IMG/VR virus record: IMGVR_UViG_3300035394_000193
DNA from: a virus
Lineage: Duplodnaviria; Heunggongvirae; Uroviricota; Caudoviricetes
Direction: 5' to 3' (one strand)
Length of the DNA stretch: 64,000 nucleotides
Below, piece by piece: positions 5,355 to 30,513 of the stretch. Position 1 is the first letter of the stretch. Each line of letters starts with the position of its first letter. Below the pieces are notes generated by a model. It was not told where the DNA came from and ran no database searches. It saw only the letters and a list, made by a program, of their open reading frames with translations. The position numbers were made by a program, and so were the translations under genes.

Positions 5355-5426
5355 ACTTATCTATTGTTTTTAAAAGTTAAAATAAAAGGATGTATTGCTA
5401 CATCCTTTTACAAATTGATTGTGTAA

Positions 5427-6050: not shown

Positions 6051-6068
6051 TTTGTTTTGTTTTAATGA

Positions 6069-7627: not shown

Positions 7628-7693
7628 GTCTTTTTTAGGATTTAAAAAGGAGTGCCATTACAGCACCCCTTTTGATTTAATTGGTAAAGAGTC

Positions 7694-8269
7694 CTACAAG
7701 AGGGTTTTGATTGTTTCGGCAATCTGGTTAATGTCACCATTGGCACCATTACCCATTGCTTCAAATTTCCACTCGCCGTTGTGACGGTAGAGTTGACCCA
7801 TAATCATACCGGTTTTTCCGGAATAGTCTTCAGACAGATCAAATTTGGCAAGTTCAGCAGCATTCGCAGGATTGAATACCCTCACAAAGGCATTACGAAC
7901 CTGACCAAAATGCTGTCTCCTGGCTTCGGCTTCATAAATGTTTACAATAACAACAATGCGATGTACGCCTGCGGGGACGGCAGTTAAATCAACATTGATT
8001 ACTTCATCGTCGCCATCACCGGCACCGGTAAGATTATCACCCTGATGGGTAACACCAAATTCTTTCAAATGACGGAAGTAAATAACACCCTTATTGCCTT
8101 CGTAAATTGACTTGTCTTCCTTTAAAAGGATAACAGTACTGTCAAGGTCAACAGCGGGTCCATCGGTTTTTACATCCCATCCACAGCCAATGGCTACTTG
8201 GGTAAGTCCTGGGTTTTCTTTGGTAATGTTTACTCTTTCTCCTTTTTCAAGGTTCAATGGATTGTTCAT
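7694..8269 (-). CDS. terD: TerD domain protein (tellurite resistance / stress protein family)
   Basis: 191 aa; the GDNLTGAGDGDDEVINVDL calcium-binding DGDD-type segment and overall pattern are characteristic of TerD/TerE/TerZ. Confidence 0.85.
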   Translation of the reverse strand: MNNPLNLEKGERVNITKENPGLTQVAIGCGWDVKTDGPAVDLDSTVILLKEDKSIYEGNKGVIYFRHLKEFGVTHQGDNLTGAGDGDDEVINVDLTAVPAGVHRIVVIVNIYEAEARRQHFGQVRNAFVRVFNPANAAELAKFDLSEDYSGKTGMIMGQLYRHNGEWKFEAMGNGANGDINQIAETIKTLL

Positions 8270-8328
8270 TTTGTTCTGTTGTTAATGTTTACTTTTTCTC
8301 CTTTTTCAAGAGCCAATGGATTTTCCAT
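8266..8328 (-). CDS. 20-codon upstream ORF created by tandem duplication of the terD 5' end; its stop overlaps the terD ATG
   Basis: 8287-8328 is a near copy of 8228-8269 (GTTTACT(C/T)TTTCTCCTTTTTCAAG...CAATGGATT...CAT). It reads MENPLALEKGEKVNINNRTK, against the TerD start MNNPLNLEKGERVNI; the uORF TGA (8266-8268) overlaps the TerD ATG (8267-8269) as ATGA. Confidence 0.4.
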   Translation of the reverse strand: MENPLALEKGEKVNINNRTK

Positions 8329-8375
8329 TTGTTTTGTTTTTAATTGTTAATTGATTTTATTGGGTAAGCGTGATT

Positions 8376-8690
8376 CTAAATTAAATTTTCCAATGGATAA
8401 GCATTTCGGATTGACTCCATATCAATTTCATACATGAAATCATCTGTGTTATCATTACATTGCATAACATGTGTTACATCAATATCCTGCGGCAATCGAA
8501 AATTGTGTACAGGTGAGCCTATCATTCGAACTTTTTCAATTATTGCCTCAACAGCTGCTTCAACATGAAGTTTAGCAAATGCTATGGCGACTTGTCCAGT
8601 ATCAGGAGGAATATTCTCTCCATAAGGATCAAATTCTAAACTTCCTCGACACTGAGTAATAAATTCTGATATTGTAGGTACTGTTTCCAT
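8376..8690 (-). CDS. hypothetical protein
   Basis: ORF track gives 8376-8723 from an alternative TTG start that lies inside a terminator hairpin; the first ATG is at 8690 (METVPTISEF...), giving about 104 aa. Confidence 0.45.
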   Translation of the reverse strand: METVPTISEFITQCRGSLEFDPYGENIPPDTGQVAIAFAKLHVEAAVEAIIEKVRMIGSPVHNFRLPQDIDVTHVMQCNDNTDDFMYEIDMESIRNAYPLENLI

Positions 8691-8711
8691 TGTTTCTAAG
8701 ATTAAATTAAA

Positions 8712-8748
8712 AACCTCCGCCAACTATTATTGTCAAGCGGCGGAGGTT
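8712..8748 (-). terminator. rho-independent terminator / attenuator hairpin
   Basis: AACCTCCGCC-N17-GGCGGAGGTT, a 10-bp GC-rich stem followed on the minus strand by TTTTTAATTT; it lies between the 703-aa gene and the ATG at 8690. Confidence 0.55.
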
Positions 8749-8756
8749 TAATTGAA

Positions 8757-8886
8757 GGGGGTTTAACACCCCGCGGTTTGGCGAAGGGATCGCCTTCTGG
8801 TACAAAGTAATAAGGAATTGATTCAGTGGCTTTTTCAGCGACACCCCTTCTATTTTATGTACATAGAAGTAACTCAATCATAGCCT
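8757..8886 (-). promoter_or_regulatory. motif copy plus two further GC hairpins forming a structured leader upstream of gene 8376-8690
   Basis: Motif copy at 8865-8886 (AGGCTATGATTGAGTTACTTCT on the minus strand), then hairpins GGCGAAGGGATCGCC (8780-8794) and GGGGGTTTAACACCCC (8757-8772), and then the terminator hairpin. Confidence 0.35.
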
Positions 8887-8911
8887 TGTTATTATCACTT
8901 TGCCCAATCTT

Positions 8912-11023
8912 TTATATACCCATATATTCCATGGTCTTTACATACGAAGATGCAAAGTCATCGAATAGGAAGTGAGTTTCTGCAGTTTCTTTCGATACAA
9001 CACGACCACGTGCCTCGACATGCCATTGTAGCAAGTCATATACACTGACCTTTGGTAAAGATATGTACGGTTTCAACGCATCGAAAAATTCCGACGATTG
9101 ACCGTAAACAAAACTTGAAAATCCATCATAATCCAGGTCCAAATAAATTGATTCGCGAGCAACTAAATCGTATGCTGCAACCAATACCATATTTCCAGCA
9201 CTTTTTAGGAGCATAGAGTTTTGAATGGTATCTGGTTTCCAGGTTTTGTTCGATTCAGGAAATTGTCGTTCCATTACACCAGCAACACATTCTTTCAAAT
9301 CAGAAAGTTTTCCTCCTTGAAAGTTATGTATTACCATAATGAAATAATTGTACCCGCGTCTTACAGCTTCGTCAACCACAATATCAACATATTCTGCACA
9401 AGCGCCTTGACGATGACGAACATCACCAGAGTAACATCCAAGTCCAGGTACATTTTGATTTCCATTGTATCCAAATGACATACTGCCTTTTGGACCAATT
9501 AAAAATCCGTGTAAATCCAAATCTTGGTCACCATGTTGATCATACCAATGAATAAAAGGTCTAATAACCTTTTTACCTTCACCAAATGGTGTTCTTTGTC
9601 CACGTATTACGGGAACTAAACTATCATTCAAGCTACGCATGTTTGTTGGTAATGGAATCTTTTTCAATTCTTCATCAATCCAACAATCGCCGAGTGCAGG
9701 CAAATCAGCAAACTTACCTTTAATGATATCAAAGATAGTAGACTGTATAGCATCAATCTTTTCAGCTGCAATTGCAGGTAGTGAGGGAAGATTAGTATGT
9801 TTCCTTGCACCTTTAATCATAACCTTGCGATTATTTGAAGGTAGTCTTCTATCTTCAAAATGACTAAATACCTCAAACAATACTTTATTTGAAGCTTTGG
9901 CTCCAATTTTAGCAAGAAGATTGAGAATCAATTGCAAACTACTTTTATTCGCAGTACGAACAAGAAAGTCTAACCTACGTAGAAATTCACCAGGACGTTC
10001 AGCAAGCTTTGTAATCCCAGTGTTAGCGGAAATACTAAAAGCTTTAGTTACTTCGCCGTACCATGATACAACTTTCTCATTTCTAATTTGGTCAAATGCT
10101 TTATAAGCACGAGGAAACAATGCTTTATATTCACCAGGATGTAAGATTTCTCCAATCCTAACCCAACGTTGGTCTTTTAATTTCATTTCACGAACATCCA
10201 AACTAGATTTCTCCAAGAGTTCTAAAATGAATTTACGTTCAGCTCGTTTGAATTTCTTGAACTTGAATTTCTCTCTTTCAGGATTTGCTACAGTAACATA
10301 ACTTCTACGATAGCCACTTTGTTGTCTTACTGTTTTACGAGGTACGGCAGGAAGAGATACATCTCCGCCTGATAGATATACGATGATTCTCAATACATCG
10401 GTCGATGTAAGAGATGGCAATTGAACTGTACCAAGACCACGGCCGGTAGTAATCAATTTGCCAATCATTGTACATAAGTTTTCTTTAAAAGGGATACTTT
10501 CGGGGAAAGTTAGGAATGGATATTCTGCAACAAACCACTCAAGAACTTTTAAATCAGCAGGAGTCAATGATGTACCTGCTTTTGCAAGACTTGTAAAGAT
10601 ATTAGCAAAATCCTGTTCAGTGCCAAGGGTAATAGGTCGGTATTTTACTTGCTCGAATGCTGTACTTTTCGTACGAGTCCATTCGTTAGCAGTGAAAGAT
10701 CCTCCAGACCAATAACCAAGAAGTTGATTAAACCATAATTGTTGTTCCGACATTTCAATTACTTGTGTCGGAAATCCTTTGTATATGGGTTGATAGTCAC
10801 GTTGACCACCGGTCATTTCTTTTAAGTAGTCGAGAACTTCATTATAGAAGTCTTTAATGTTTGCGGCATCAGTATATCCCAATGCTTCTAAAGCATCTGA
10901 ATCTAACATATAGCCAAACCTCATTAGTTCAGCTTGGCACATCATAGCCAAATTGCGGTTATCAATTCCGTTATTCGGAACAACCACAAGACCTTTTTGG
11001 AAAGCGATTACATTTTTATTCAT
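8912..11023 (-). CDS. large hypothetical protein (703 aa), first gene of the Ter-type operon
   Basis: Long uninterrupted ORF with no Walker A motif and no domain I can name from sequence; followed by the motif and hairpin leader. Confidence 0.6.
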   Translation of the reverse strand: MNKNVIAFQKGLVVVPNNGIDNRNLAMMCQAELMRFGYMLDSDALEALGYTDAANIKDFYNEVLDYLKEMTGGQRDYQPIYKGFPTQVIEMSEQQLWFNQLLGYWSGGSFTANEWTRTKSTAFEQVKYRPITLGTEQDFANIFTSLAKAGTSLTPADLKVLEWFVAEYPFLTFPESIPFKENLCTMIGKLITTGRGLGTVQLPSLTSTDVLRIIVYLSGGDVSLPAVPRKTVRQQSGYRRSYVTVANPEREKFKFKKFKRAERKFILELLEKSSLDVREMKLKDQRWVRIGEILHPGEYKALFPRAYKAFDQIRNEKVVSWYGEVTKAFSISANTGITKLAERPGEFLRRLDFLVRTANKSSLQLILNLLAKIGAKASNKVLFEVFSHFEDRRLPSNNRKVMIKGARKHTNLPSLPAIAAEKIDAIQSTIFDIIKGKFADLPALGDCWIDEELKKIPLPTNMRSLNDSLVPVIRGQRTPFGEGKKVIRPFIHWYDQHGDQDLDLHGFLIGPKGSMSFGYNGNQNVPGLGCYSGDVRHRQGACAEYVDIVVDEAVRRGYNYFIMVIHNFQGGKLSDLKECVAGVMERQFPESNKTWKPDTIQNSMLLKSAGNMVLVAAYDLVARESIYLDLDYDGFSSFVYGQSSEFFDALKPYISLPKVSVYDLLQWHVEARGRVVSKETAETHFLFDDFASSYVKTMEYMGI

Positions 11024-11052
11024 GTTTTAATTTATTTAGGGTTTAAAAGTTT

Positions 11053-11409
11053 TTATTGTATTAGAGTTTTAGACTTATAAGGAGTTACTTTAGCTAGATA
11101 AATTTTTTGTTTAGTGTAAAAATCTTTTTGTTTTTGCATTTCAATTGTATGGAATGCACGAATAGCTTCTATTGTAGGAAATTGTTTTTTAATACTTTCC
11201 TCGTCAATTATTTTGACAAGCTTTGGTGTGAATTGTTCTAATCCTGAAGTATAACCATTTTCATACCACCAAAATATGTTATACCAAATAGGAATAAACC
11301 AATAGTAAGCATATTCAATGATGTAAGATTCCTCACAATAATGGGTTAATCGTAATTTAAATTTCTTTTTCATTAGGGATGAGTTTAGATAAAGAAAAAT
11401 GAAAGCCAA
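11053..11409 (-). CDS. hypothetical protein
   Basis: 118 aa ORF, aromatic-rich. Confidence 0.45.
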   Translation of the reverse strand: MAFIFLYLNSSLMKKKFKLRLTHYCEESYIIEYAYYWFIPIWYNIFWWYENGYTSGLEQFTPKLVKIIDEESIKKQFPTIEAIRAFHTIEMQKQKDFYTKQKIYLAKVTPYKSKTLIQ

Positions 11410-11446
11410 ACCATAAGCCTGGCTTTCATGTATTTTGTTATATTGT

Positions 11447-11836
11447 TTACATTGGTTTGTTCCACCAAGAAAGCCATTTAGGCACTCCTTTTGGAAATAC
11501 TTCAGTCATGGTAAGACCTTCTTCACCAGCATATATTAATGTAACAATTATTGCACCAATTGCTGCAATTATATTTAGTATCGGAGTAAGTGATACTAAC
11601 ATTAGCAATGCAAAGGACCATACTTTTAAGCCTATTGGCTTATAGGTATAAGTAGGGTGACGTGTTACTTCAATAAAGCATGGCACAGTAGCCATCCACT
11701 TTAAGAAGAAGAATGTAATAATGGCGATGATTATCCAGAAAATCATGTTATTGTTTTTTAAAAAATTCGTAATTAAAGAAATTGTCGATCTTTGTTCCTT
11801 TACAGCTAGGAAAAACACTGCCAGGTCCATCAGCAA
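11447..11836 (-). CDS. small membrane protein
   Basis: 129 aa, 2-3 predicted TM helices. An internal Met at about 11746 would give ATGA coupling with the upstream gene's stop, so the true start may be there. Confidence 0.45.
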   Translation of the reverse strand: MLMDLAVFFLAVKEQRSTISLITNFLKNNNMIFWIIIAIITFFFLKWMATVPCFIEVTRHPTYTYKPIGLKVWSFALLMLVSLTPILNIIAAIGAIIVTLIYAGEEGLTMTEVFPKGVPKWLSWWNKPM

Positions 11837-12035
11837 TAATACTTACAACAACCCAAATAAATGTAATTATTACTGCAACAGCATTTACTCCAGGAATAAA
11901 AGCTAAAAGAATTACAACAATTATATTTCTTACCTTCAATCCTAATGGGTCTCCTGAATCAGCACAAGGAAAGTAAAGAAACCACAGTCCCCACAACAAT
12001 GTTGCAAGGACTGTGAGTATGTATATACCTAACAT
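11748..12035 (-). CDS. small membrane protein
   Basis: 95 aa, three hydrophobic helices (LTVLATLLWGLWFLYF..., IIVVILLAFIPGV..., VIITFIWVVVSII). Confidence 0.45.
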   Translation of the reverse strand: MLGIYILTVLATLLWGLWFLYFPCADSGDPLGLKVRNIIVVILLAFIPGVNAVAVIITFIWVVVSIIADGPGSVFPSCKGTKIDNFFNYEFFKKQ

Positions 12036-12150
12036 TAGGTTTTAGGTTTTTTGTGATTGCGAAGCCATTCGTTCGTCATCCAATAAATCCATACCACAGC
12101 GGCTACGATTACAAGCGCACCTAGGCCTTCATAAAATGCTCCCATCTTGC

Positions 12151-12930
12151 TTACCTGTTTAAAAGTATGCCGGAAGTTGCTCCGAACACATTGTTAGTAC
12201 CGTATTTTGATACTCCTTTCTGCGCCCAAGTCATTTCAATTTCCAGTTCCTTAAGTTTCAACATAGCCGGTTGTGATAGCACATCCTTAGTCTTCGCATC
12301 CCATTCGGCAGCTTTATAATTATTCTCGGCTTCCTGACCTTTTGACAACGCCAACTTATTCAATTCAGCTTGTTTAGCTGTTGCTTCAGCAGCATCGGCA
12401 ATTCCTTGTGGAATATCAACATCGGTTATCCTAACACGGCTACAAGAAACAAAGAAAGCAGGAAACTCCTTGACTAATATTGCAAGAATTTGTGTTTCAG
12501 CTGAATCCCTTTTGCTTAGGTTTAATTCAGAGGCACTATATTGAGGTATCACTTGTTTAGCTGCAGAGGACAAAGTAGTCATAATCTTAGCATCAAGTTG
12601 TTCTTTACCGATTGAACTATGAATTACATTTGCTTTTAAGCCATCAAGTTTATAGTCAATAGAAACGGCAACCGGAGTCTTCATATTATTGCGATCATTG
12701 AACTCGAACTTTTCAGTAATAGTCTTTTCACGAACGTCGTACTCGACTAGATCGTCCCACAACCAATGGATTCCCATATTCAATCCTTCCGGATGAACGA
12801 CTTGCATGTTTGTTTCACCACCCCACGAGATCTCTACCCCTTTGTGGCCTGATTGTACACTTTCACATCCTGTCAGGAGCATAACTGCTACAACCGACAA
12901 TAAAAATAAGAAATTTCGCATTTTTTTCAT
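12151..12930 (-). CDS. lipoprotein, possibly SPFH/band-7-like
   Basis: 259 aa; signal peptide plus lipobox MKKMRNFLFLLSVVAVMLLTGC. The middle region (VVHPEGLNMGIHWLWDDLVEYDVREKTITEKFEFNDRNNMKTPVAVSIDYKLDG) loosely resembles the SPFH fold; the alanine-rich C-terminus looks coiled-coil. Confidence 0.55.
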   Translation of the reverse strand: MKKMRNFLFLLSVVAVMLLTGCESVQSGHKGVEISWGGETNMQVVHPEGLNMGIHWLWDDLVEYDVREKTITEKFEFNDRNNMKTPVAVSIDYKLDGLKANVIHSSIGKEQLDAKIMTTLSSAAKQVIPQYSASELNLSKRDSAETQILAILVKEFPAFFVSCSRVRITDVDIPQGIADAAEATAKQAELNKLALSKGQEAENNYKAAEWDAKTKDVLSQPAMLKLKELEIEMTWAQKGVSKYGTNNVFGATSGILLNR

Positions 12931-12982
12931 TGTTTTTTGTTTTTAGTAATTGATGATTGTTGTTTTAATTGGTATTGATTTG

Positions 12983-13207
12983 TTATTTAGAAAAGTTTTT
13001 GAGAATGTATTGCATGGTATAAAATCCGCCTATTATGGTTACCAAAAGGAAAACTGCGCCGCCATAAAATTCAATACCCATCCAATATACACTTATATGT
13101 ACACAGATTGTAACTGTCATAAATAACAAGAGGATTCGAAACAAAAGGATCAAGTATCTCTTCATTGTTTTAATGATTAAAAAATTTTTGAAGTAATTGA
13201 AGTACAA
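12983..13207 (-). CDS. small membrane protein
   Basis: 74 aa, two TM helices. Confidence 0.4.
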   Translation of the reverse strand: MYFNYFKNFLIIKTMKRYLILLFRILLLFMTVTICVHISVYWMGIEFYGGAVFLLVTIIGGFYTMQYILKNFSK

Positions 13208-13376
13208 ATGGAGTCAATGCAATTGACAACATTAAAGACCAGGCACACACAATTAAGGTAGCTTGTACACCAGTATAATTATATATGGCATCTGGAATTG
13301 TTTTCCACATGCCCCATATAATCAAACAGATAGACATTAACCTCATGGTAATTTTGATATCGTCCATGATTAACAC
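13170..13376 (-). CDS. small membrane protein
   Basis: 68 aa, two TM helices; overlaps its neighbours by a few codons. Confidence 0.4.
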   Translation of the reverse strand: MLIMDDIKITMRLMSICLIIWGMWKTIPDAIYNYTGVQATLIVCAWSLMLSIALTPFVLQLLQKFFNH

Positions 13377-13747
13377 TCTACAAATTCAGGACGAAGAACT
13401 CGATATCCTTTGTTTTTAAGAAACATAATCATGCTCTCTTCTTCTGAAACAATAGGTTTCATTTTAGCAGCAACATTCAAAACTTGCTTTGCATTTGATA
13501 TTTTATGCATTGCGTCTTGAATTTGCCTGAAATAAATTGGCTCAGTTGATGGAAAAGTGTACGTTTTGCCATTTTTTTCCAACAGCTTCAAATTTAATAG
13601 AAGCTGTGGAACTCGAGCAGGATAGGGACAATCCGCATTATGAAGATCGGAAATTAACTCCTTAATGTGAAAAGAGCTTTTGTTTTGACGAACCATGTTG
13701 ATTGCCAAGACAGCTCTTTTGGCTCGTTGTTCTGGTGTTATTCGCAT
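13370..13747 (-). CDS. hypothetical protein
   Basis: 125 aa ORF. Confidence 0.5.
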   Translation of the reverse strand: MRITPEQRAKRAVLAINMVRQNKSSFHIKELISDLHNADCPYPARVPQLLLNLKLLEKNGKTYTFPSTEPIYFRQIQDAMHKISNAKQVLNVAAKMKPIVSEEESMIMFLKNKGYRVLRPEFVEC

Positions 13748-13841
13748 TTTTATTTTGTTTTAGGATTTATTGATTGATTGAATTGTAAACAATTAAAGAT
13801 CCCCGCACTGTATCACTACAGATTGGGGACCTAAAAACAAA

Positions 13842-14177
13842 TTAATGTCGAGAGAAAATGATGTCAAATAATGTCAGATTCAACTCAACAATGGCTTCTT
13901 CAAGAATAATTATCCTTGAATTGTGATCACATGGATGGAACCAAAATACAAATTTTAATTTTAATTTTGGTTTTCTATTCATTAGTTCGGGAAAATCTTC
14001 TATATCGAATCTTGAATCAATTCCTTCAAGAAGGAGACAAAAATTTACCCATTTGTAACGAGGTTGAAACCAGTTTTCGTCAGTCAGAGGTTCATGTAAA
14101 GGAGGTATTGATTGGATTATCTCTAACAGTTCATGATAGATTCTCCACCGTTTAAATTTCGAGTATGGACTTTTCAT
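13842..14177 (-). CDS. hypothetical protein
   Basis: 111 aa ORF. Confidence 0.45.
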   Translation of the reverse strand: MKSPYSKFKRWRIYHELLEIIQSIPPLHEPLTDENWFQPRYKWVNFCLLLEGIDSRFDIEDFPELMNRKPKLKLKFVFWFHPCDHNSRIIILEEAIVELNLTLFDIIFSRH

Positions 14178-14179
14178 CG

Positions 14180-14515
14180 CTATTCAGAATAAGGGTATGA
14201 TGCAATACCGGAAATAGGAATTTCAACCCAATAAGTTTCAGCTCCATTAAGTGTACCTAATTGATCTGAAAATTGATCATCAAATAACCTTTGAGCACCA
14301 TATACATCTCGTGCCAAAACATAGAATTTCTGCGAAATAAAACGAGAAGTGTCTTGATAAGTAGGTTCTTTTAATAACACAACTGTACATTCAAATAGAC
14401 CTGATTGAGCAAGATACTGATTAACAATCTCTGATTTTTGATCATCAGTTGGGGCAATACATGAAACCATAGAAAAGGTTACTATGGTGAGGATGAGAAT
14501 TAGTAGTTTTTTCAT
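14180..14515 (-). CDS. putative lipoprotein
   Basis: 111 aa; N-terminus MKKLLILILTIVTFSMVSC (signal peptide plus lipobox Cys). Confidence 0.5.
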   Translation of the reverse strand: MKKLLILILTIVTFSMVSCIAPTDDQKSEIVNQYLAQSGLFECTVVLLKEPTYQDTSRFISQKFYVLARDVYGAQRLFDDQFSDQLGTLNGAETYWVEIPISGIASYPYSE

Positions 14516-14544
14516 TTGTTTTTGTTTTTAGGATTTGATTGTAA

Positions 14545-15030
14545 TTATTTTTGTTTCTTAAACTTTGCACTCCAAGTTCCAGATTCGGATATTTCAAATC
14601 CATCACTGGCATTTCTTTTGTAATACACAATACCTGACTCAACAAGAGAATCATCACTGTAATAATGTCCATGTCCACAGAAAACTAATTCCTGTTTAAT
14701 ATGAACACCATTACACCATGTTTCTGATGGAATAGTTATGTTGTCAATGTTATATTCTCCATTTAGCATAAATGTGTAACCATCTACAAAGGGGGAATCA
14801 GCCCAGATTACATGAAGGTAATCAACCTCATGTACAGAAAATTTACGAACGGCATCAGGACTTCCATAGATACCACTAATATGATATTCAATAGTTCCTT
14901 GCCATCTACCTATTAACTTTTGGTTCTCATTCTGTTCTTTTTGACAGCTTGTTCCCAAGATTAAGAACATTGCTAACATAAGACTAATAATTACCCAAAA
15001 TAAAACTTTGTTTTCAGATTTGTATTTCAT
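14545..15030 (-). CDS. putative lipoprotein
   Basis: 161 aa; N-terminus with a hydrophobic segment then LGTSC lipobox-like. Confidence 0.5.
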   Translation of the reverse strand: MKYKSENKVLFWVIISLMLAMFLILGTSCQKEQNENQKLIGRWQGTIEYHISGIYGSPDAVRKFSVHEVDYLHVIWADSPFVDGYTFMLNGEYNIDNITIPSETWCNGVHIKQELVFCGHGHYYSDDSLVESGIVYYKRNASDGFEISESGTWSAKFKKQK

Positions 15031-15254
15031 TTTGTTTTTGTTTTGAATTTACGTTCTAAAATTATGGATCTTTCACGGGTTATTACTTCAACAAATTCTT
15101 TACTCCAATCAATAGGATGATAACTACCATCTAAGGAAAAGTAAATACTACTTGCACCTGCTATTAAGTCGCAGTATTCATCAAAGTTTCGCTGGTCTGT
15201 AAATGTTGTTATTGTTTGCATACTACAGGTATTTAGCTGGTAATAATCCTGCAA
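15027..15254 (-). CDS. hypothetical protein
   Basis: 75 aa ORF, ATGA overlap with the upstream gene. Confidence 0.4.
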   Translation of the reverse strand: MQDYYQLNTCSMQTITTFTDQRNFDEYCDLIAGASSIYFSLDGSYHPIDWSKEFVEVITRERSIILERKFKTKTK

Positions 15255-15483
15255 CTGCCAAAGAAAGGAAAAGAGTTAAATCAATCTCGAAAAGATTTAC
15301 ACCCCATGTCATATCAAAGTCTTCAATTGAATACTCTCGCACACGTTCGACTCCATCAATACACATTAATTGTACCATGATAGATATCTCTCCTGTGGTT
15401 GTATCTTGTACAAATTCAAAATTTGACATCCATCCAATATCGGATTTTTGTGTAGTGTAATACCGCTGTAATACCTTTTTCAT
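15223..15483 (-). CDS. hypothetical protein
   Basis: 86 aa ORF. Confidence 0.4.
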   Translation of the reverse strand: MKKVLQRYYTTQKSDIGWMSNFEFVQDTTTGEISIMVQLMCIDGVERVREYSIEDFDMTWGVNLFEIDLTLFLSLAVAGLLPAKYL

Positions 15484-16259
15484 TGTTTTCTTTTGTTTTA
15501 GATTTTAGCACCCGTTTCTTATTTCTCAAGAATTATATGATAATTCTCTACCATTATTATCTTTGCGCAAGAGGTTTTTCACCTACATGGTATTAGAGAT
15601 TATATGTTATAATAAGAAACTTAGGGTCGCAATGATTAATACCAATTTGGAACCAGATTCGACTTGGTAGGTACTAATATTAATCATCTTGCTTGAGACT
15701 CATTGTGTTGTAGAGACTACATATTACTATGCTGTGGTGTTACTCCTTTACAGGTAACAGATTATATCTCTATTTCTTTTCCAGCATTCCTTTCTCAAGG
15801 GAACAACACATCTACTATTACAATAGATTTTTATGAATTGTAAACAGTTTATTATGTCTTCACTGTTTTGCGATATCTATTACAATTCAAAGGACTTCGT
15901 TAACCTCATTGATAGATATGAATAACCTTTCTAAAGTGAATAATCGAGCAATTCAAATTCTCGATATCTTTAGGTTTGTCTCATCTCATTACCAACTACA
16001 TACAGTTTATGTATTATCCTATATGGTTTTATTTTAAATATTTTAACTTCCTCCTTTAGATATGTTATAACAGCTCTCCTTCTGTTATAACTTCTTGGAG
16101 CCAACTAACCCGTACTATGTAGCATACTAATGGTAATCGAAGTATGAGGAACGTTGCGTAGTTCCCTTGGTTCAATTTGAAGTTATGTTCCGTTTACCCA
16201 AGTCTTTACGGGTTTACCTACTAAACGGACAAATATAGGATTTTTTGCCTCACTAATCC

Positions 16260-16622
16260 TCACCCCTGAGAAATTCTTATTTGTTTTTCCATCATAACAA
16301 CACGTTTTCTTAATAAATTTGCTAACTGATGTGTTGACATACAACTATAGATTTCAGAATAGTTGTTTGTAACACAAGGTGCAATGGCTTCTCCAGAATT
16401 AATGTCCCACATGCAGTATTTGCAGTAGCGAATACACTTAGTTTTGCGTTGAAATATTTCTGCAGCAACACATAAAGTACACGATTGAGTAGATCCAAAT
16501 CCTGTCCTTTTTTTTAAAAAAGAAAGAGCACCAATAAATAGGTCATATTGTGATTCAAGTTCCTCTGCTATGATTTCATAGTCTTGCTTTAATTTTACAA
16601 AAGCTTCTAAATTATTTTCCAT
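16260..16622 (-). CDS. hypothetical Cys-rich protein (stop codon is TGA)
   Basis: ORF track 16260-16757; the likely start is the ATG at 16622 (MENNLEAF...) immediately after the stop of the upstream gene. The Cys cluster CTLC...CIRYCKYC...C suggests metal binding. Confidence 0.45.
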   Translation of the reverse strand: MENNLEAFVKLKQDYEIIAEELESQYDLFIGALSFLKKRTGFGSTQSCTLCVAAEIFQRKTKCIRYCKYCMWDINSGEAIAPCVTNNYSEIYSCMSTHQLANLLRKRVVMMEKQIRISQG

Positions 16623-17034
16623 GACATTTTTTAAATTTAAGATTTGAACCACAATGACATAATTCGTTACGTCCAACTTTCGGAGCATCAAGTTCTGCTT
16701 GAGTTGCCACTCTTGCATACTTTGATTGCTTACTCGTTGGGTTAGGTAGATAATCACTTAAGATTGGAAGTTCACTTAATTCCTTTGATATTGATAGATA
16801 AGGATTAAGACTGTATGGTAATGTTACAGCAGGTGGATTTGGATTAAAACCTTCTGCATAAGCAAAAGATTTACCATCTTCTCCAACTTCACGCACAATA
16901 ATTTCAATGTCATGAGCTTTTGCAAGTGCCACAACATTAGCCATTATTTCTTCAGATGGTTTACCAACAACGATAATACGTTTATCTTTAGTTGTTGTTG
17001 GCAATTGTTCTTCAGTCGCTGTATATTTATCCAT
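16612..17034 (-). CDS. SEC-C motif domain protein
   Basis: 140 aa; C-terminus ELCHCGSNLKFKKCHGK matches the SEC-C metal-binding motif (CxCxSxxKxKxCH). Confidence 0.55.
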   Translation of the reverse strand: MDKYTATEEQLPTTTKDKRIIVVGKPSEEIMANVVALAKAHDIEIIVREVGEDGKSFAYAEGFNPNPPAVTLPYSLNPYLSISKELSELPILSDYLPNPTSKQSKYARVATQAELDAPKVGRNELCHCGSNLKFKKCHGK

Positions 17035-17404
17035 ACAACTCCTTTCTTACTTGAGCAATTACTGCATTAATGATTATTTGACGTCGATTATTTCCCTCTT
17101 CATTGAGAGCATACCAAAATACACCACCTGGAGTACCATAACTGGTAACAAACCGTGCAGGACGATATGCTTTAAGCTCTGGAAAATCAATCAAATCCCA
17201 TTGATCTAACTGCCTTTGTATCCCAACTGCTTCCATTGCAGCGAATTTAACTTGGGCATTAGCCAATAAACGACAAAATCCAATGTATCCATTCTGATCT
17301 ACAGCCATACTATCTAATTGTTTTTTAATCATTTTGTAGATAATCAATCTATCTGTTAATGAATAAGGAACAAAAGTAGTTGTTTCATACAAATGTTTAA
17401 TCAT
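17027..17404 (-). CDS. hypothetical protein
   Basis: 125 aa ORF. Confidence 0.5.
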   Translation of the reverse strand: MIKHLYETTTFVPYSLTDRLIIYKMIKKQLDSMAVDQNGYIGFCRLLANAQVKFAAMEAVGIQRQLDQWDLIDFPELKAYRPARFVTSYGTPGGVFWYALNEEGNNRRQIIINAVIAQVRKELYG

Positions 17405-17564
17405 ACATAGAGGTTGGTTTATTCAACAATCTGTGAACTTCAGCGTATTTCTTTTCTTTTTGCTTAACCTTAAACTGCTTATAATAAGCAATTATAAAAG
17501 GTAAACAAGCAAGGAATAAAAGAACTATTGCTAGTATTATTCCAACAATTGAGCAATCTTTCAT
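17397..17564 (-). CDS. small membrane protein (55 aa)
   Basis: ATG at 17564; translates MKDCSIVGIILAIVLLFLACLPFIIAYYKQFKVKQKEKKYAEVHRLLNKPTSMYD; its stop overlaps the start of gene 17027-17404; below the ORF-track size cut-off. Confidence 0.35.
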   Translation of the reverse strand: MKDCSIVGIILAIVLLFLACLPFIIAYYKQFKVKQKEKKYAEVHRLLNKPTSMYD

Positions 17565-17587
17565 ATAACTAGGTTTAATTGGTTACA

Positions 17588-17632
17588 AAGTAAAAAAGCA
17601 CAAGAGAAAAAAGACTTCGAATCTCTTGTGCT
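17588..17632 (-). terminator. rho-independent terminator
   Basis: AGCACAAGAGA-N14-TCTCTTGTGCT, an 11-bp perfect stem, followed on the minus strand by TTTTTACTTTG. Confidence 0.6.
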
Positions 17633-17944
17633 TTAAATAGCTTCCTTAATAGTTTTTCCTCGTCTAGCAAGTTACCTTATGCTTCCGATTCTTCAGTAGG
17701 CTATTTTAGGGACATTGTTTACCACCGACACTTTGGTCCAGTAGCCCCTCTGGCTTTAGCCGTTAACCGGCAGATTCAATAAATTTATTACTTTTATTGA
17801 ATCATTTTCCTGGCATCACCTATCTATCGCTAGCATAGAAATGGCGGCTTTCACAGCCTACAGAAAATACGAAAAATCATCACATAATTAGTCTCTACCT
17901 AACCTTGTTAACGTTATTCAAAGAAGAACACTGATGATTTAATG

Positions 17945-18019
17945 GAGTTCCTACGGGACTCGAACCCGTGCCTCGACCCGCTGAATGGGTCCGCTCTACC
18001 AACTGAGACGTAAAGAACT
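17945..18019 (-). tRNA. suppressor tRNA, anticodon UCA (reads UGA)
   Basis: Minus strand AGTTCTT-TA-CGTCTCAGTTGGTAGAGCG-GACCC-ATTCAGC-GGGTC-GAGGC-ACGGG-TTCGAGT-CCCGT-AGGAACT-C. Anticodon stem GACCC/GGGTC closes the 7-nt loop A-T-TCA-G-C, so positions 34-36 are TCA. T-arm and D-loop are canonical; the D-stem has one mismatch; the variable loop is short (not Sec-like). Confidence 0.7.
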
Positions 18020-18052
18020 CTTTTTCCGGTAGCAAAGAATTATCGGAAATTT

Positions 18053-18412
18053 TTATTTGGCAATCTTTCGCCAAAATCGATCCTTTCGGATGTATTTAAA
18101 AAATAACGTGTCTCCTGGTTGTTTAGACCAGTATAATGCACTGCCATTGTTTTCTGCGAGTGCGTTATAATTATATCCTGTTAACTCTGTATACAATGTT
18201 GTATCAGCTACACTTTGAACAAGAAAATATTTTCCGTTATTAGAAAACTTTCCATCACGTTCAGAGTAGCCACCTTTTTCAATAAGTACAACTTTGTAAT
18301 TAAAGTATTGTGAATCTTTATTTTTATTACAAGAACCCACATAACCTAATATAATAAGAGTTAACACTATAACAGCAATACCCAAGGTGACAGTTCTATC
18401 AATGTTATCCAT
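18053..18412 (-). CDS. membrane-anchored hypothetical protein
   Basis: 119 aa; N-terminal TM segment TVTLGIAVIVLTLIILGYVGSC. Confidence 0.5.
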   Translation of the reverse strand: MDNIDRTVTLGIAVIVLTLIILGYVGSCNKNKDSQYFNYKVVLIEKGGYSERDGKFSNNGKYFLVQSVADTTLYTELTGYNYNALAENNGSALYWSKQPGDTLFFKYIRKDRFWRKIAK

Positions 18413-18417
18413 AATTA

Positions 18418-18837
18418 TTAAGAATTAGGATAAATCCGTTTAACAATTATTGCGCCTTCGTTGTACAAATCAAACACGCTGTCAAAATGTGAGATTTCTT
18501 CTTCACAACTTGAATGCCTAGTCCAACCCATTAATTGAGCTATTGCAGATGCACCTTGTTGTATTCTTAAGGCATCACTGAACGAATCAGTTGTAAATGT
18601 AGTTTCACTGTTTTTATAAACATGAATGTCTACAGTGAACTTTTTAAGCTCTATTACCGTCTTTGTAAAGACAATGAAGTCATATTGTTCTTCAATCTCA
18701 CGTACTGTTAAAGCAACTTGAAACGGAATCACAATACTTGATGTTCCGTTTATGAACTCAACCACGAAGGGAGTTAAACTAAGGACACGATGTGATGTTG
18801 CACTCATTTTATTTGTTTTTAGGGATTGGTTTAACAT
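18418..18837 (-). CDS. hypothetical protein
   Basis: 139 aa ORF. Confidence 0.5.
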   Translation of the reverse strand: MLNQSLKTNKMSATSHRVLSLTPFVVEFINGTSSIVIPFQVALTVREIEEQYDFIVFTKTVIELKKFTVDIHVYKNSETTFTTDSFSDALRIQQGASAIAQLMGWTRHSSCEEEISHFDSVFDLYNEGAIIVKRIYPNS

Positions 18838-18883
18838 TTAAGGAATCTCCCTTTGCTTACACATTAGGAGAAACCTAGATTCT

Positions 18884-19081
18884 TTAATCACATGAATCCC
18901 CACATGACCATTGGGTTAAGAGAGGAGTAGATTTAAAGCCATAAAAGCCATATCCAGCAGGATGATACCCTAACTGCATTTGTATTTCGCAGGCTTCTTG
19001 TTCTGTCAGTGGTCCAGGATAAGTGAACTCAAACATTCTACTTTTCCTTTCTTTTGTTACTAATTTGAGATCGTGTGCCAT
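18884..19081 (-). CDS. hypothetical protein
   Basis: 65 aa ORF. Confidence 0.4.
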   Translation of the reverse strand: MAHDLKLVTKERKSRMFEFTYPGPLTEQEACEIQMQLGYHPAGYGFYGFKSTPLLTQWSCGDSCD

Positions 19082-19083
19082 TA

Positions 19084-19323
19084 CTAATTCATTTGAGGAT
19101 TAATTATCACTGTTGTGATTGTGAACTGATTACACAATCCAACTAAATAGTCCAACGTAAGAGAATATCCATCTCTTTCGATGATTTCACACAGTTCTTC
19201 ACGCAGCTCTTCAGCTGGTAAGTTGAAATCGGATATTTCTGCAACCTGTTCTTCAGTTAAGTCAGGCTTTACTTGTTCAAATCGAGTATTAAAATACTCT
19301 TGAAATTTTTTATGCTTGCACAT
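19084..19323 (-). CDS. hypothetical protein
   Basis: 79 aa acidic ORF. Confidence 0.45.
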   Translation of the reverse strand: MCKHKKFQEYFNTRFEQVKPDLTEEQVAEISDFNLPAEELREELCEIIERDGYSLTLDYLVGLCNQFTITTVIINPQMN

Positions 19324-19344
19324 TGTTTCTAGGTTTTTGAAGGT

Positions 19345-19632
19345 TTAAATCTTTTGTAAAATAATTTGACGATCTGAAAATTGTTCATCAATAATTTTCA
19401 TAAGTTGAACAAAATCATTTGTATTGTTGGCTTTTTTAATACCATCAATGAGATCTTTACCTTCTTGAAACCATTTTGGATTAGTTTCTTGTAATGCTTT
19501 CATTGCACTTGGCAATTCATGAGTAAAAAGATTAACACCAAAAATGTAACTCAACATGGAATATACATCATCCATATCTGTAGTCAATCTACCATCTAAG
19601 ATAGAAAAAGCTTGTTTTAATGTAACGTTCAT
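19345..19632 (-). CDS. hypothetical protein
   Basis: 95 aa ORF. Confidence 0.45.
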   Translation of the reverse strand: MNVTLKQAFSILDGRLTTDMDDVYSMLSYIFGVNLFTHELPSAMKALQETNPKWFQEGKDLIDGIKKANNTNDFVQLMKIIDEQFSDRQIILQKI

Positions 19633-20356
19633 TATTTCTAGGTTTTTATAGGTTTGACCTGATATTATTATATCAACGCACTAGACTTAACAATGTTTAT
19701 ACTCTTCTAGTAGAGTCGAACAAATAAGGCAATCAAAGGATTACTCCCTTGACTGCCTATTCATTCATTTCATAAAGCCTGAGTTTGGTACAACTTTACA
19801 ATAACAGTGTTGCTTCTTTGAAGCGGCTCCATAGTGTCCCACCATTACCGATTGATTTTTTGACAAACCAATAAACTTTCCTCGTAATATACTCTTTGAG
19901 ACGGCTAACCTCATACCCTTTATTACGTCTTCATTGCATCACGATATTATGCAACTAAATCTGCTATGCTGATTAGTATTCGGAAAATCTTTTCACACTT
20001 TTGCCATATAGGATTTAGACAATCAAACATGTGTATTTTTAAAGTCTTAGACTTACAGACTCAATCATAAAAATAAGCCACGCATCCGAAGCTTTGGTGC
20101 TCCGGAAATCCCAATCGCCAATATCATTAATTTGTAACAATGATTCAAACCCTACAGACTTAACCTGCTCAATCCTGGGCTGTGACAGTTATTTTTGAAT
20201 CATTATTACATTTTAAATAACCCAATAAATCCGTATATCCTTCTCAACGGACTCCACCTCATTCGGATAAGCTCTAGCTTAGAGGAATAGAATGGGTTTT
20301 AATAAAAGATTCACCCTCACCACTATTACTAGTGTATATTGGGTGAACCTAGATCA

Positions 20357-20635
20357 TTAATTAATTTCGTTGGCAATATGCCACAATGGATCAAGATGAT
20401 TATCAGCATACTCCTGAATAGGATCTTCCTTAGCCAGTTGTTGGCTTTTAGCATCACCCAGAGCAATAACCTGCTCTAATCCTTTTCCTAATTGTTCCGG
20501 AGTCATTACCGGCAATACTTGATTGATGAAGTTTTTCATTGGTTTTGTTTTTTGGAGATTAATACTTTGATGGTGCTGTTGATAGTCTTTCTTCAGAGTC
20601 ATAATTCCAAAGGTTATCGGCAATTGGTGATTCAA
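20357..20635 (-). CDS. hypothetical protein (overlaps 20559-20873 by 77 nt; possibly frameshifted or a pseudogene)
   Basis: 92 aa ORF flanked by long ORF-free DNA. Confidence 0.35.
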   Translation of the reverse strand: MNHQLPITFGIMTLKKDYQQHHQSINLQKTKPMKNFINQVLPVMTPEQLGKGLEQVIALGDAKSQQLAKEDPIQEYADNHLDPLWHIANEIN

Positions 20636-20873
20636 AATCTTGCTGAACTACAAAATCCAAGAAAGCCAATGTTTTTTGCATTGGTATTGTAGCAGTTGTA
20701 AGATCTGCTTCTGATTTCAGATAAGCTAATACTTCATCGCGAAGCATTGCAAGGTTTTGCAAATGAACCAATTGTAATTCTAAGCTCAAGCCTGTGATAC
20801 CATGACCACGACGAGCTAACCTGTTTGCACTTGAGTTTTTAATTTCGGATGTAATAGGCATTGTTGTATACAC
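20559..20873 (-). CDS. hypothetical protein
   Basis: 104 aa ORF. Confidence 0.4.
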   Translation of the reverse strand: MYTTMPITSEIKNSSANRLARRGHGITGLSLELQLVHLQNLAMLRDEVLAYLKSEADLTTATIPMQKTLAFLDFVVQQDFESPIADNLWNYDSEERLSTAPSKY

Positions 20874-21265
20874 ATTTTGATAGCTTGTTGTGTATCAAGC
20901 TTTAGGTTTGTTCATATTTTGCATCGAAAGCACACTCTTACAAATACTTACGTATTGTAAAGTGATATGTTGGATGAGTCATTTAGCCACTAACTCAAGT
21001 GGTAAGCTATTAGGTGTTGTTATCTCAAAAAATATACATTAATGTTCTCAGATATATAATGTATTTTTAGAGATGTGATTTGAAAAGATGAAAAGTGTGA
21101 TATTTTGCGGAGTGTGTGTTGATGGGTTCCTCTGATTATCTCACCATTACACTTCAATAATTTTTTAATAACCAGCAATGAAAATCATCTCCTAATAACA
21201 AATGGAGCAGAAACTACAAAGGAGTGCAATACTCAATCTTAATATACTTTTCTTTCATTGTAATT

Positions 21266-21490
21266 CTACTCCATTAATACACATTGAAAAATTACCCAAT
21301 CATTAATACCACAATAAATATACTGTATGTTGATAGCTGATAATTTCTTGTTCATATAAAATCTATGATGCCTATATGCTAAGCAATCAATAATTTTATC
21401 ATCATCTGTTATGAAACTATTTTCATCTGTAAATCTTCCTACAAATGTATAAATTAAGTCTCGATTCAATTCCTTGGTTATATTTTGCAT
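21266..21490 (-). CDS. hypothetical protein
   Basis: 74 aa ORF. Confidence 0.35.
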   Translation of the reverse strand: MQNITKELNRDLIYTFVGRFTDENSFITDDDKIIDCLAYRHHRFYMNKKLSAINIQYIYCGINDWVIFQCVLME

Positions 21491-21560
21491 AGTACTTATG
21501 AATATACTATTTGGTTTGAAAAAGAAAAGGAAGATATTGCTATCTTCCCTTTCAATTCAA

Positions 21561-22157
21561 TTATTTGGCAGGTGGTGTTACCAATGTGAAAACGTGGTAA
21601 GTTTTCGGTTCGGTATTAGCCAATAGCTTTTCCTTTGCTTCTGCAATGGTTAATTCGGCAGGTGCAAACATTTTATCGGCTTCGTACTTTTTCAATGCTT
21701 TGCCAGGAAATTTAACTGTTTTGAATGATTTTCCTTTAAGGGCAAATAAACGCTTGTCTTGGCTGTTTTCAGAGTACAACGACTCACTTATTCTTGTTTG
21801 TTTCAGCATATATTTGCCAGCGTTCTTTACTGATTTAACCTTTACAGGTTCGTCGGTAACGGTTTGTGCGAATATTGTATTTTCGCTAACGTGCAAAGCT
21901 GTTTTTTCGTCCTTGCCTAAATAATAACCAATAGAATAACGAGTAATTTCTATCCCGTTTTCATCTTTTAGTTTGTATTCCTTTTCCCCGATATGGTCAA
22001 AAGTGCCCTCTTCAGGAACAGAATTAAATTCGGTTGCGGCGTTTGCTACCTTTTCAGCGATTTTATCTTCGCTGAGCCCATTGGCTTCGCCTACCTTTGC
22101 GCGTAATGCGCTCAAATCTTCGATTTTGTTAACTTTAATTTTGTCAGATGTTGCCAT
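21561..22157 (-). CDS. hypothetical protein, first gene of the minus-strand block
   Basis: 198 aa ORF starting next to the divergent control region. Confidence 0.55.
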   Translation of the reverse strand: MATSDKIKVNKIEDLSALRAKVGEANGLSEDKIAEKVANAATEFNSVPEEGTFDHIGEKEYKLKDENGIEITRYSIGYYLGKDEKTALHVSENTIFAQTVTDEPVKVKSVKNAGKYMLKQTRISESLYSENSQDKRLFALKGKSFKTVKFPGKALKKYEADKMFAPAELTIAEAKEKLLANTEPKTYHVFTLVTPPAK

Positions 22158-25631: not shown

Positions 25632-25703
25632 CGGTTCTTAGTGTAATGGCAGCACATTAGTCTTCAAAACTAATAGGTGAGGGTTCGAGTCCTTCAGAGC
25701 CGG
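25632..25703 (+). tRNA. suppressor tRNA, anticodon UCA, tRNA-Trp-like
   Basis: CGGTTCT-TA-GTGT-AATGGCA-GCAC-A-TTAGT-CTTCAAA-ACTAA-TAGGT-GAGGG-TTCGAGT-CCTTC-AGAGCCG-G. The 7-bp acceptor has one G-U pair; the anticodon loop C-T-TCA-A-A puts TCA at 34-36 with A37, i.e. the tRNA-Trp loop CUCCAAA with C35 changed to U; T-loop TTCGAGT. Confidence 0.75.
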
Positions 25704-25707
25704 CAAA

Positions 25708-26962: not shown

Positions 26963-27364
26963 TTATAAAGAATTGGTATTTTACTTCCCAATTCAAATGT
27001 ATAATAATTTAGCAAATATAATTAATAATGAATTTAAAAATTAAGATATTTTATAAAAATTGTGTTTTATTCCAAAATTTATAAATACCTTTGTAAAAAT
27101 TTAAAACAAACCTAAAATTAAAAAGTTTAAATCAGTATGGCAGATGTATTAAAATTAATAACTTATATTATTGTTAATCATGGATATTGAGCGGCATTTG
27201 CCTTTGTATCAGTTAGTTCGATCCCACTTCTGGCTGGGGCTTACTTATTATCTTCTAAGAATGTATTAAGTAAAATTATTGATAGAAAGTTTTCTGAAAA
27301 AGAAGAAGAAGAAAAAGCTAATCATAAACATGGTAACAGACTTAGAAAACAATTTACTGAAGAA

Positions 27365-27865
27365 GTGCAGGAAATACTTAGTAATTTAGCTGAAGAAACA
27401 AAAGCTAATAGAGCAATTATTTTTGAGTTTTCTAACGGAACTACAAATCTCGTAGGACTTCCATTTTTGTTTATGACTGCAACTAATGAAGTTGCAACTC
27501 CAGGATTACCTTTAATGAGTCAAAGACATGAACGTTTAAATACTGCAATGGTGGCTCCATTTTTAACAAGGTTAGAAAGAGATGGATTCATTTTTATTGA
27601 CCGCACTGGGCCAATACCCCCAGATTGCAGAGTATTGGAACAAGTAATGGAACGAGCAGATATTGAAAGTGTTTTATTCTATTCAATTCAGGGTGTTGAC
27701 GAAGCCATTGGATTTTTAGCTATTGTAACAACCCGATCATCCTATAATATTTTAGAATATCCAGCAATTTTACCATTAGTAAGTAGGGCAGCACAAAGAA
27801 TTGGTTCAATGATCAATTATGATGAGATAGATGAAAGAGAAAAAGAAAAGAAAAAATTTAAATGA
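27365..27865 (+). CDS. hypothetical protein (GTG start in the ORF track; real start uncertain)
   Basis: 166 aa ORF; an in-frame TGA 69 nt upstream (27296) could extend it if read through. Confidence 0.45.
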   Translation: MQEILSNLAEETKANRAIIFEFSNGTTNLVGLPFLFMTATNEVATPGLPLMSQRHERLNTAMVAPFLTRLERDGFIFIDRTGPIPPDCRVLEQVMERADIESVLFYSIQGVDEAIGFLAIVTTRSSYNILEYPAILPLVSRAAQRIGSMINYDEIDEREKEKKKFK

Positions 27866-28788: not shown

Positions 28789-28891
28789 AGTAGGAATTGC
28801 TATTACTAGTTTGATAGTAGTGGCAGCATTTTATTGAATGGCTATTAAATGAGTAAATGATTATAAACATAGTAATATTGTAGAACACCAA

Positions 28892-29718: not shown

Positions 29719-29745
29719 ATATTAATTAAAAAATGATAATGAATT

Positions 29746-30285: not shown

Positions 30286-30286
30286 T

Positions 30287-30511: not shown

Positions 30512-30513
30512 TT

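Follow-up and report, generated by a model that had tools for sequence, protein, structure and literature searches.

A phage tRNA gene with a UCA anticodon, atypical structure and a variable anticodon loop in a phage with a TGA-recoded late block

The locus and its genetic code

ARAGORN detected three tRNA-like genes in the window (the whole 64,000-nt stretch of phage DNA analyzed here), two of which carry the anticodon tca. One of these two, which we call tRNA1 (Table 1), was placed by ARAGORN at 17944..18019 on the minus strand with the label "tRNA-SeC", and it matched the Rfam model RF00005 with 37.9 bits (gathering score 29; E 2.2e-4 for the whole window), which puts the cloverleaf above the curated threshold. 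The Rfam alignment closes the 7-nt loop AUUCAGC with the stem GACCC/GGGUC and has U-C-A at positions 34-36. The two programs thus agree with the original prediction, which had described a minus-strand tRNA with a GACCC/GGGTC stem, an ATTCAGC loop and the anticodon UCA, and the covariance-model fold, which could have put a different triplet at positions 34-36, put UCA there. As it stands in the window phage, the loop is fully canonical, with 7 nt, U33, UCA and a purine at position 37 (G37). The variable loop has 5 nt (GAGGC), UA follows the acceptor, the D loop is AGUUGGUA (8 nt), the T loop is UUCGAGU, and the core nucleotides U8, A14, G18-G19, G15:C48 and the T-loop UUCGA are present.

The description of this cloverleaf as well formed held for the four arms and the core nucleotides, but not for the D arm. 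Two extra nucleotides (the "cg" insertion of the Rfam alignment) lie between A9 and the D stem, and the stem itself contains one non-standard pair or, in an alternative drawing, has 5 bp and a bulged U, so that a two-nucleotide connector followed by a regular 4-bp D stem is missing. The score of tRNA1 is above the gathering threshold of the model and falls in about the lowest tenth of the ~100 tRNA matches in related phages. Minimum-free-energy folding was uninformative (z-score -1.8), and in a competing structure GUCUC pairs with GAGGC of the variable loop. A G at 18020 (G-1) can pair with C73 (17945), which would give an 8-bp acceptor stem, and C73 is followed immediately by C and A (17944-17943).

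The 5' end of tRNA1 lies 33 nt past the stop codon of a 119-aa gene, and the hairpin between them contains the motif ATTCTTTGCTACCG, which flank comparison also revealed upstream of the tRNA1 orthologue of L074 (L numbers designate loci fetched for comparison). tRNA1 had been predicted to be followed by a terminator; our scan of the minus strand found no terminator-like site adjoining it, and the first strong hairpin with a U-run on its 3' side (17632..17592, 13 bp) is ~310 nt downstream, past a conserved structured noncoding RNA (ncRNA), so that the claim stands for a distant site but not for an adjacent one. This ncRNA had nhmmer matches in L066, L049 and L074, and it lies downstream of tRNA1 in all four phages that have a member of the tRNA1 family. 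Its consensus fold, computed with RNAalifold, has compensatory changes in 12 of 29 pairs. The fold z-score of the ncRNA is -3.6, and a search of Rfam matched it to no family. The short stretch that separates it from tRNA1 is variable, the immediate 3' side of tRNA1 not being conserved, and a 55-aa membrane-like ORF (17568..17404) begins just downstream of it. We considered a T-box-like pairing of the tRNA1 loop with a "specifier" in the ncRNA, as UUCAG is complementary to a conserved CUGAA, and rejected it for lack of covariation, because L066 and L049 have the same CUGAA segment but different anticodon loops. A protein search with the 125-aa gene downstream of tRNA1 gave one non-self cluster only, and a scan of ~45 ORFs of the window detected no aminoacyl-tRNA synthetase and no release factor.

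When TGA is read through, plus-strand coverage by long ORFs rises to nearly 100% from 27 kb onward, and the counts of in-frame TGA in the two blocks (Table 1) bore out the prediction that tRNA1 lies among standard-code genes, on the strand opposite the recoded block. In the terminase-like gene, the columns occupied by TGA contain Trp in 441 of the 531 non-gap cells contributed by 44 homologues, and almost all of the rest contain Tyr or Phe. Because some of these homologues are themselves recoded, we added a comparison at the codon level. Opposite the TGA codons of the window, the 85%-identical L065 has TGA (19), TGG (5), TTT (3) and TAT (2), the five closest IMG/VR terminases have 26 TGG, 26 TGA and otherwise only Phe or Tyr codons, and more distant terminases have a few other codons, never CAT or CAC. 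Across L065, L071 and the IMG/VR terminases, no His codon stands opposite a window TGA, and the partners are mostly TGG, TGA, TAT/TAC and TTT/TTC. Because TGA columns and codons align with Trp and TGG in relatives, these alignments indicate that TGA is Trp in the late genes of the window phage.

The UCA anticodon and the ARAGORN label raise the question of a selenocysteine tRNA, and, as in tRNA-Sec (RF01852) and allo-tRNA-like UCA tRNAs, retention of G-1 would allow an 8-bp acceptor to combine with the 5-bp T stem into a 13-bp acceptor/T helix. tRNA1 has, however, a 5-nt variable loop and an ordinary 8-nt D loop in place of the long variable arm, 6-bp D stem and 4-nt D loop of tRNA-Sec, the general tRNA model outscores the other, overlapping families of its clan, and the TGA sites of the phage are Trp positions. 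A selenocysteine tRNA had been discounted in the original prediction on the grounds of the short variable loop, and with the long arm missing we rule it out, its probability being close to nil.

Within the recoded block, the plus-strand genes in 34515..36296, 43413..48210, 48436..49951 and 53558..54727 contain several TGG and 0 TGA. Among their products are cadherin-domain and beta-helix proteins resembling fibre/adhesin modules, and the lack of TGA in these genes would fit recent acquisition from standard-code phages. Among the IMG/VR terminase homologues (L077-L103), in-frame TGA occurs in most of the terminase genes, down to ~44% identity, and from these genes TGA recoding seems widespread across this broad phage group.

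Table 1. Features of the window, with positions counted from its first nucleotide
Feature	Position	Strand	Evidence and remarks
Standard-code arm	609..22157	-	73 TGG, 0 in-frame TGA; stops 23 TAA, 4 TAG, 2 TGA
TerC	4416..5354	-	Ter set
vWA/TerF-like	5427..6050	-	Ter set
ComF-like PRTase	6069..6938	-	Ter set
HAD-like	6935..7627	-	Ter set
TerD	7694..8269	-	Ter set
Conserved structured ncRNA 3' of tRNA1	17590..17760	-	nhmmer, RNAalifold, fold z-score; ends in 13-bp hairpin and U-run
tRNA1, atypical class-I tRNA (A1..C73)	17945..18019	-	ARAGORN, Rfam RF00005, four-member family with compensatory pairs
tRNA1 anticodon loop AUUCAGC	17980..17986	-	Rfam alignment; comparison with L066, L049, L074
tRNA1 anticodon U34-C35-A36	17984..17982	-	Rfam alignment
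Two extra nucleotides (C, G) between A9 and D stem of tRNA1	18008..18009	-	"cg" insertion in Rfam alignment; invariant in 4/4 family members
Hairpin between stop of 119-aa gene and 5' end of tRNA1	18023..18049	.	Scan; motif ATTCTTTGCTACCG
tRNA2, canonical UCA tRNA (loop CUUCAAA, G73)	25632..25704	+	ARAGORN; Rfam, 63.3 bits
TGA-recoded late block	27137..63727	+	72 in-frame TGA, no TGA stops
Terminase-like gene with 13 TGA	31676..33874	+	Inside TGA-recoded late block

Orthologues of the two UCA tRNAs

A weak Rfam hit in L049 provided the first orthologue of tRNA1, and a covariance model (R1) built from the window and L049 copies found only two further members when run against the loci: L066, a ~92% identical strain, and L074. 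The four members (window, L066, L049/L071 and L074) occupy the same genomic position in the standard-code arm; no member was found at the equivalent position in L046, L047 or L048. Exact and degenerate DNA patterns of tRNA1 retrieved nothing from IMG/VR or GTDB genomes, two IMG/VR hits proving to be chance matches inside coding sequence, and a generic UCA-tRNA pattern run against IMG/VR returned nine unrelated UCA tRNAs and no relatives of tRNA1. TGA is recoded in the L049 phage too, which shares all three TGA positions of the window gene at 27137..27880 and also carries a copy of the second UCA tRNA. Because L066 is so close to the window phage, it presumably is recoded as well and, if so, copes without a UCA loop in its tRNA1 gene. 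As found so far, the tRNA1 family appears confined to a clade of phages in which TGA is recoded to Trp.

All four members have G-1, C73, the acceptor stem AGUUCYU/AGGAACU, the CG insertion, the GAGGC variable loop and a canonical T loop. G-1 and C73 are invariant despite diverged flanks, and the L049 gene encodes CCA after C73. Of the cells in paired columns, 98.9% are paired, and there are four compensatory pairs, located in the anticodon and T stems, as opposed to at most 50% paired when the partner strand is slid; the family is small (n = 4) and its statistics are correspondingly thin. Outside the anticodon loop, the window and L049 copies are 91% identical, whereas the neighboring proteins are only 30-50% identical, and not one of 62 body columns differs between the window and L066 copies, the difference in the region as a whole being 7.6%.

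A decaying pseudogene, left over from an array of 24-29 tRNA genes upstream of the gene for a 703-aa protein, would account for the low Rfam score and the irregular D arm, and relatives at ~50% identity do have such large arrays where the window phage has three tRNA-like genes. Decay would not be expected to leave the body more conserved than its neighbors, to preserve pairing through four compensatory changes, or to keep the irregular features themselves in all four members. The tRNA1 body is conserved more strongly than its surroundings and has compensatory pairs, and therefore is under selection rather than decaying; we consider a pseudogene very improbable, the pattern of conservation largely ruling it out. 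Judged by this pattern, the minus-strand sequence at 17945..18019 is a genuine tRNA gene, whose product is of class I but atypical.

The anticodon loop is the only hypervariable part of the family. The anticodon arms read GACCC AUUCAGC GGGUC in the window (7 nt, U33, UCA), GACCG CACAAU CGGUC in L066 (6 nt, without UCA), AACCG CCUCAAG CGGUU in L049 (7 nt, C33, UCA) and GACCC UGCAUCG GGGUA in L074 (7 nt, without UCA, with G·A as the top pair), such that the loop together with its closing pair differs in every member. UCA is present in two of the four (window and L049) and U33 in the window copy only. Between the window and L049, UCA is central in both 7-nt loops, and the other four loop positions and the closing pair are all different. 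The closing pair and loop span 9 columns, of which 6 differ between the window and L066, and a 1-nt deletion lies beside them; the chance under the 7.6% background was computed as 4e-7 for at least 7 differences in 9 columns and, by our own arithmetic, is about 1e-5 for at least 6. The body sequences group the members as (window, L066) and (L049, L074), and because UCA is found once in each of these sister pairs, it probably was ancestral in the family and was lost twice.

The second UCA tRNA, tRNA2, presents a different picture. It heads the plus-strand block, shortly before PhoH, and a class-I UCA tRNA is found at the same position in L065, L071, L072, L074 and L076. The loop CUUCAAA and G73 are kept in 6 of 6 phages, while the stems differ by many compensatory changes. 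The tRNAs most similar to tRNA2 are the CUA suppressors of TAG-using relatives, and it scores 32 bits with model R1, compared with 55 for a tRNA-Val. Both the low R1 score and the resemblance to CUA suppressors support the earlier suggestion that the two UCA tRNAs of the window had independent origins, and the conservation of loop and discriminator points to tRNA2 as a likely conserved Trp-type suppressor of the window phage.

Two variants of the tRNA2 locus were seen among the relatives. In L071 (15405..15476; the orthologue belonging to the L049 phage), CUUCAAA and G73 are kept, the T loop is the non-canonical GCAGAAC, and the score is 38.4 bits. In L075, the UCA tRNA at this position upstream of PhoH (7736..7827) is 92 nt in length and has a long variable arm; its best Rfam match is tRNA-Sec at 39 bits, below the gathering score of 47. 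This tRNA looks quite different from tRNA1, and the suppressor at the locus has apparently been replaced by a tRNA of a different class.

Identity elements and possible roles of tRNA1

The main identity marks for ValRS are A35, C36 and A73, HisRS of bacteria relies in most cases mainly on G-1:C73, and, under the rules of tRNA modification, G37 beside A36 is unusual for tRNAs that read codons starting with U. We compared tRNA1 with the tRNAs of the clade against this background. All 12 tRNA-Trp(CCA) of the clade have G73, which is absent from tRNA1; there the discriminator is C73, accompanied by an encoded G-1. Nine of 11 tRNA-His have C73 as well, and in a census of the 363 distinct tRNAs of the fetched loci it was almost confined to tRNA-His. 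C35-A36 together with A1-U72/G2-C71 would suit TrpRS, and C73 with G-1 is a histidine signature. The best match to R1 outside the family was the tRNA-Val(UAC) of L001, a relative that does not use TGA in this way, which scored 55 bits and has an acceptor stem identical to that of tRNA1; all three ValRS marks are replaced in tRNA1. A comparison of identity elements with host-type tRNAs, which the original prediction had proposed, gave a divided result when made with the clade tRNAs: the anticodon bases C35-A36 would suit TrpRS, but the G73 of the 12 tRNA-Trp is missing. The name "suppressor" given to tRNA1 fares likewise, being backed by the UCA anticodon and a TGA-recoded genome but weakened by C73/G-1 in place of G73 and by the presence of UCA in only two of four orthologues.

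The reading we prefer, which we hold with about even confidence, is that tRNA1 would be an opal suppressor of accessory function, specific to its lineage and derived by remoulding of a Val-like tRNA, and that tRNA2 would be the main decoder. An ancestral Val-like phage tRNA would have been turned into a UCA reader, UCA probably being ancestral to the family; in the window phage, the RNA would be transcribed with the early or middle minus-strand genes and would still be able to pair with UGA, and the routine decoding of UGA as Trp would be carried by tRNA2. That the window tRNA1 could read UGA is suggested because its loop is canonical, UCA is kept in two diverged loops and the family is restricted to recoded phages. 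Against a conserved role in decoding stand the loss of the UCA loop in two members, the absence of U33 in three, C73/G-1, G37 after A36, and the irregular D arm. Because the loop is not conserved across the family, the conserved role of the family cannot be UGA decoding, whatever the window copy may do.

The same loop variation fits a second explanation, less probable than an even chance yet one we take seriously, namely that tRNA1 may be a non-decoding tRNA-like RNA with a vestigial UCA and that its conserved body has a role independent of the anticodon. It could serve as an RNase P/RNase Z processing handle for the downstream ncRNA, or as a decoy or ligand of a tRNA-binding enzyme. The body is near-invariant while the loop varies in length (7, 6, 7 nt, or 5 nt if re-paired) and three of four members lack U33; the order of tRNA-like gene, structured ncRNA and terminator is kept in all four phages; the clade has other tRNA-like genes with "anticodon" loops of 6 or 8 nt; and the signature of a conserved decoder is found on tRNA2 alone. 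A vestigial anticodon is harder to reconcile with the persistence of UCA, which matches the recoded codon, in two members that differ everywhere else in the loop and closing pair. By our own estimate, its chance would be ~1 in 64 if the three positions drifted as freely as the rest of the loop, and ~0.0015 for two independent hits among four members. The compensatory changes that maintain the anticodon stem also count against it, and the non-conserved stretch just 3' of tRNA1 weakens the simple processing-handle model.

The acceptor end suggests a third explanation. If G-1:C73 makes tRNA1 a substrate of HisRS, it would be a His-accepting opal suppressor, UGA would be read partly as His, and tRNA2 would insert Trp. 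This explanation appears improbable to us, and equally so its corollary that the repeated destruction of the anticodon in relatives reflects the cost of Trp/His ambiguity. It would explain why none of the four members departs from G-1 and C73 despite diverged flanks, with C73-CCA encoded in L049, and why the UCA loop is gone from two lineages; C73 is almost confined to tRNA-His among the 363 distinct tRNAs, and G-1:C73 is what HisRS mainly depends on in most bacteria. It is opposed by the codons of relatives, none of which, in L065, L071 and the IMG/VR terminases, specifies His where the window has TGA, by the dominance of conserved Trp columns, at which insertion of His would be harmful, and by the rest of tRNA1, which is unlike the tRNA-His of the clade. 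Like bacterial tRNA-His, tRNA1 encodes a G-1 that can pair with C73 in an 8-bp acceptor helix and, in the window copy, has G37. It differs from tRNA-His in its anticodon (UCA rather than GUG), in having no overall similarity to the clade tRNA-His, and in an acceptor that matches tRNA-Val(UAC).

A broader proposition is that these phages have a tRNA family that combines His-type acceptor marks with an anticodon loop that is rapidly replaced, such that close strains would differ in their use of this RNA for reading UGA, both in whether and in how it does so. We regard this proposition as doubtful; if it were true, it would imply Trp/His ambiguity, an arms race with a host defence directed at anticodon loops, or the co-option of a tRNA scaffold beside a new structured RNA.

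Phages that use code 4 (TGA=Trp) and encode opal suppressor tRNAs have been surveyed previously (Borges et al., bioRxiv 10.1101/2021.08.26.457843). Like those suppressors, tRNA1 has UCA and is located in the standard-code part of a genome whose structural genes have TGA at Trp positions, and its synthesis presumably precedes translation of the recoded genes. Unlike them, it has C73 and G-1 rather than G73, the loop AUUCAGC rather than CUUCAAA, and two extra nucleotides in the D arm; its loop is not conserved, and it coexists with tRNA2, which fits the known kind much better. Suppressor tRNAs of recoded phages are thus already known, and from the comparisons made here tRNA1 departs from them in three ways: as the second suppressor-like tRNA of its phage it has a different origin, it carries identity marks out of keeping with Trp, and its loop is unstable among close relatives.

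It has been proposed that substitutions in the anticodon loops of phage tRNAs protect them from the anticodon nucleases of the host (van den Berg et al., eLife 2023, PMC10264068). The tRNA1 family resembles such tRNAs in that its changes are concentrated in the anticodon loop of a conserved body and in that the window and L049 copies keep the anticodon and differ at positions 32, 33, 37 and 38. It departs from them in that two members alter the anticodon itself or the length of the loop, which goes beyond escape substitutions, and nothing in our analysis links the variation of the loop to a nuclease or a defence system. tRNA2, the essential decoder in this comparison, is without such loop variation.

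Recoded phages are usually described as having "a suppressor tRNA"; the window phage has two unrelated UCA tRNAs, of which only one behaves as a conserved decoder. A label based on the anticodon (Sup-UCA, or SeC in ARAGORN) can mask the wrong identity marks and an unstable loop, which matters for the annotation of alternative codes. As for the beginnings of recoding, a tRNA remoulded from a non-Trp type may have been in place before the Trp-type suppressor or may have served as its backup. tRNA1 also raises the question of how unambiguously a recoded codon is read, and in phages of the tRNA1 family it forms, together with the ncRNA, a conserved module without a described function.

Relatives of the phage and other elements of the window

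Searches of GenBank phages gave no match to the 22-kb region or to tRNA1 with its flanks, and the window phage itself was found in several metagenomes, on contigs of up to 168,911 bp. With the 703-aa protein (8912..11023) as the reference, the relatives at ~50% identity that have arrays of 24-29 tRNAs upstream of its gene also have a tmRNA (array and tmRNA in L001-L006, L011-L014, L019-L025, L029 and L038), and closer relatives (59-70% identity) have few tRNAs. A CUA (amber) suppressor is also present in L002, L003, L006, L014, L020 and L025, and these anticodons suggest TAG recoding in sister lineages of the TGA-recoded clade.

The homologue of the 703-aa protein in L046 is 65% identical and comes from a 166,429-bp contig (JBMDUZ010000001.1) of the "Candidatus Saccharimonadaceae bacterium" MAG GCA_053580305.1. 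Phage-type tRNAs and, at 16393..16655, a group I intron (85.8 bits) are also present on this contig; probably it is the genome of a phage that was binned with a Candidatus Saccharimonadaceae MAG, and the binning is only possibly a hint about the host.

Several other elements were noted in the standard-code arm. The tRNA-like gene detected by ARAGORN only (3886..3960, minus strand) has a two-base "anticodon", and GAAA caps the 6-bp stem (UCUUAC/GUAAGA) of its anticodon arm; relatives have similar tRNA-like genes, with loops of 6 or 8 nt, at L018 9271 and 10485, L048 14687 and 15550, and L049 13102 and 21468. Adjoining it is a sub-threshold match to YrlA, a Y-RNA-like family (4097..4195, minus strand; 35.5 bits, gathering score 69, E 2e-4), which includes a tRNA-like module. 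A Pistol self-cleaving ribozyme was matched at 19653..19716 on the minus strand with 38.8 bits (gathering score 34.5), and the corresponding region of L048 (6762..6816) contains a stronger Pistol match, of 48.7 bits. The minus-strand genes in 4416..8269 constitute a Ter-type stress-response gene set in a phage (Table 1). Finally, the minus-strand gene at 609..1691 is adenylosuccinate-synthetase-like and is annotated in PHROG as the PurZ-type enzyme used for 2-aminoadenine DNA.
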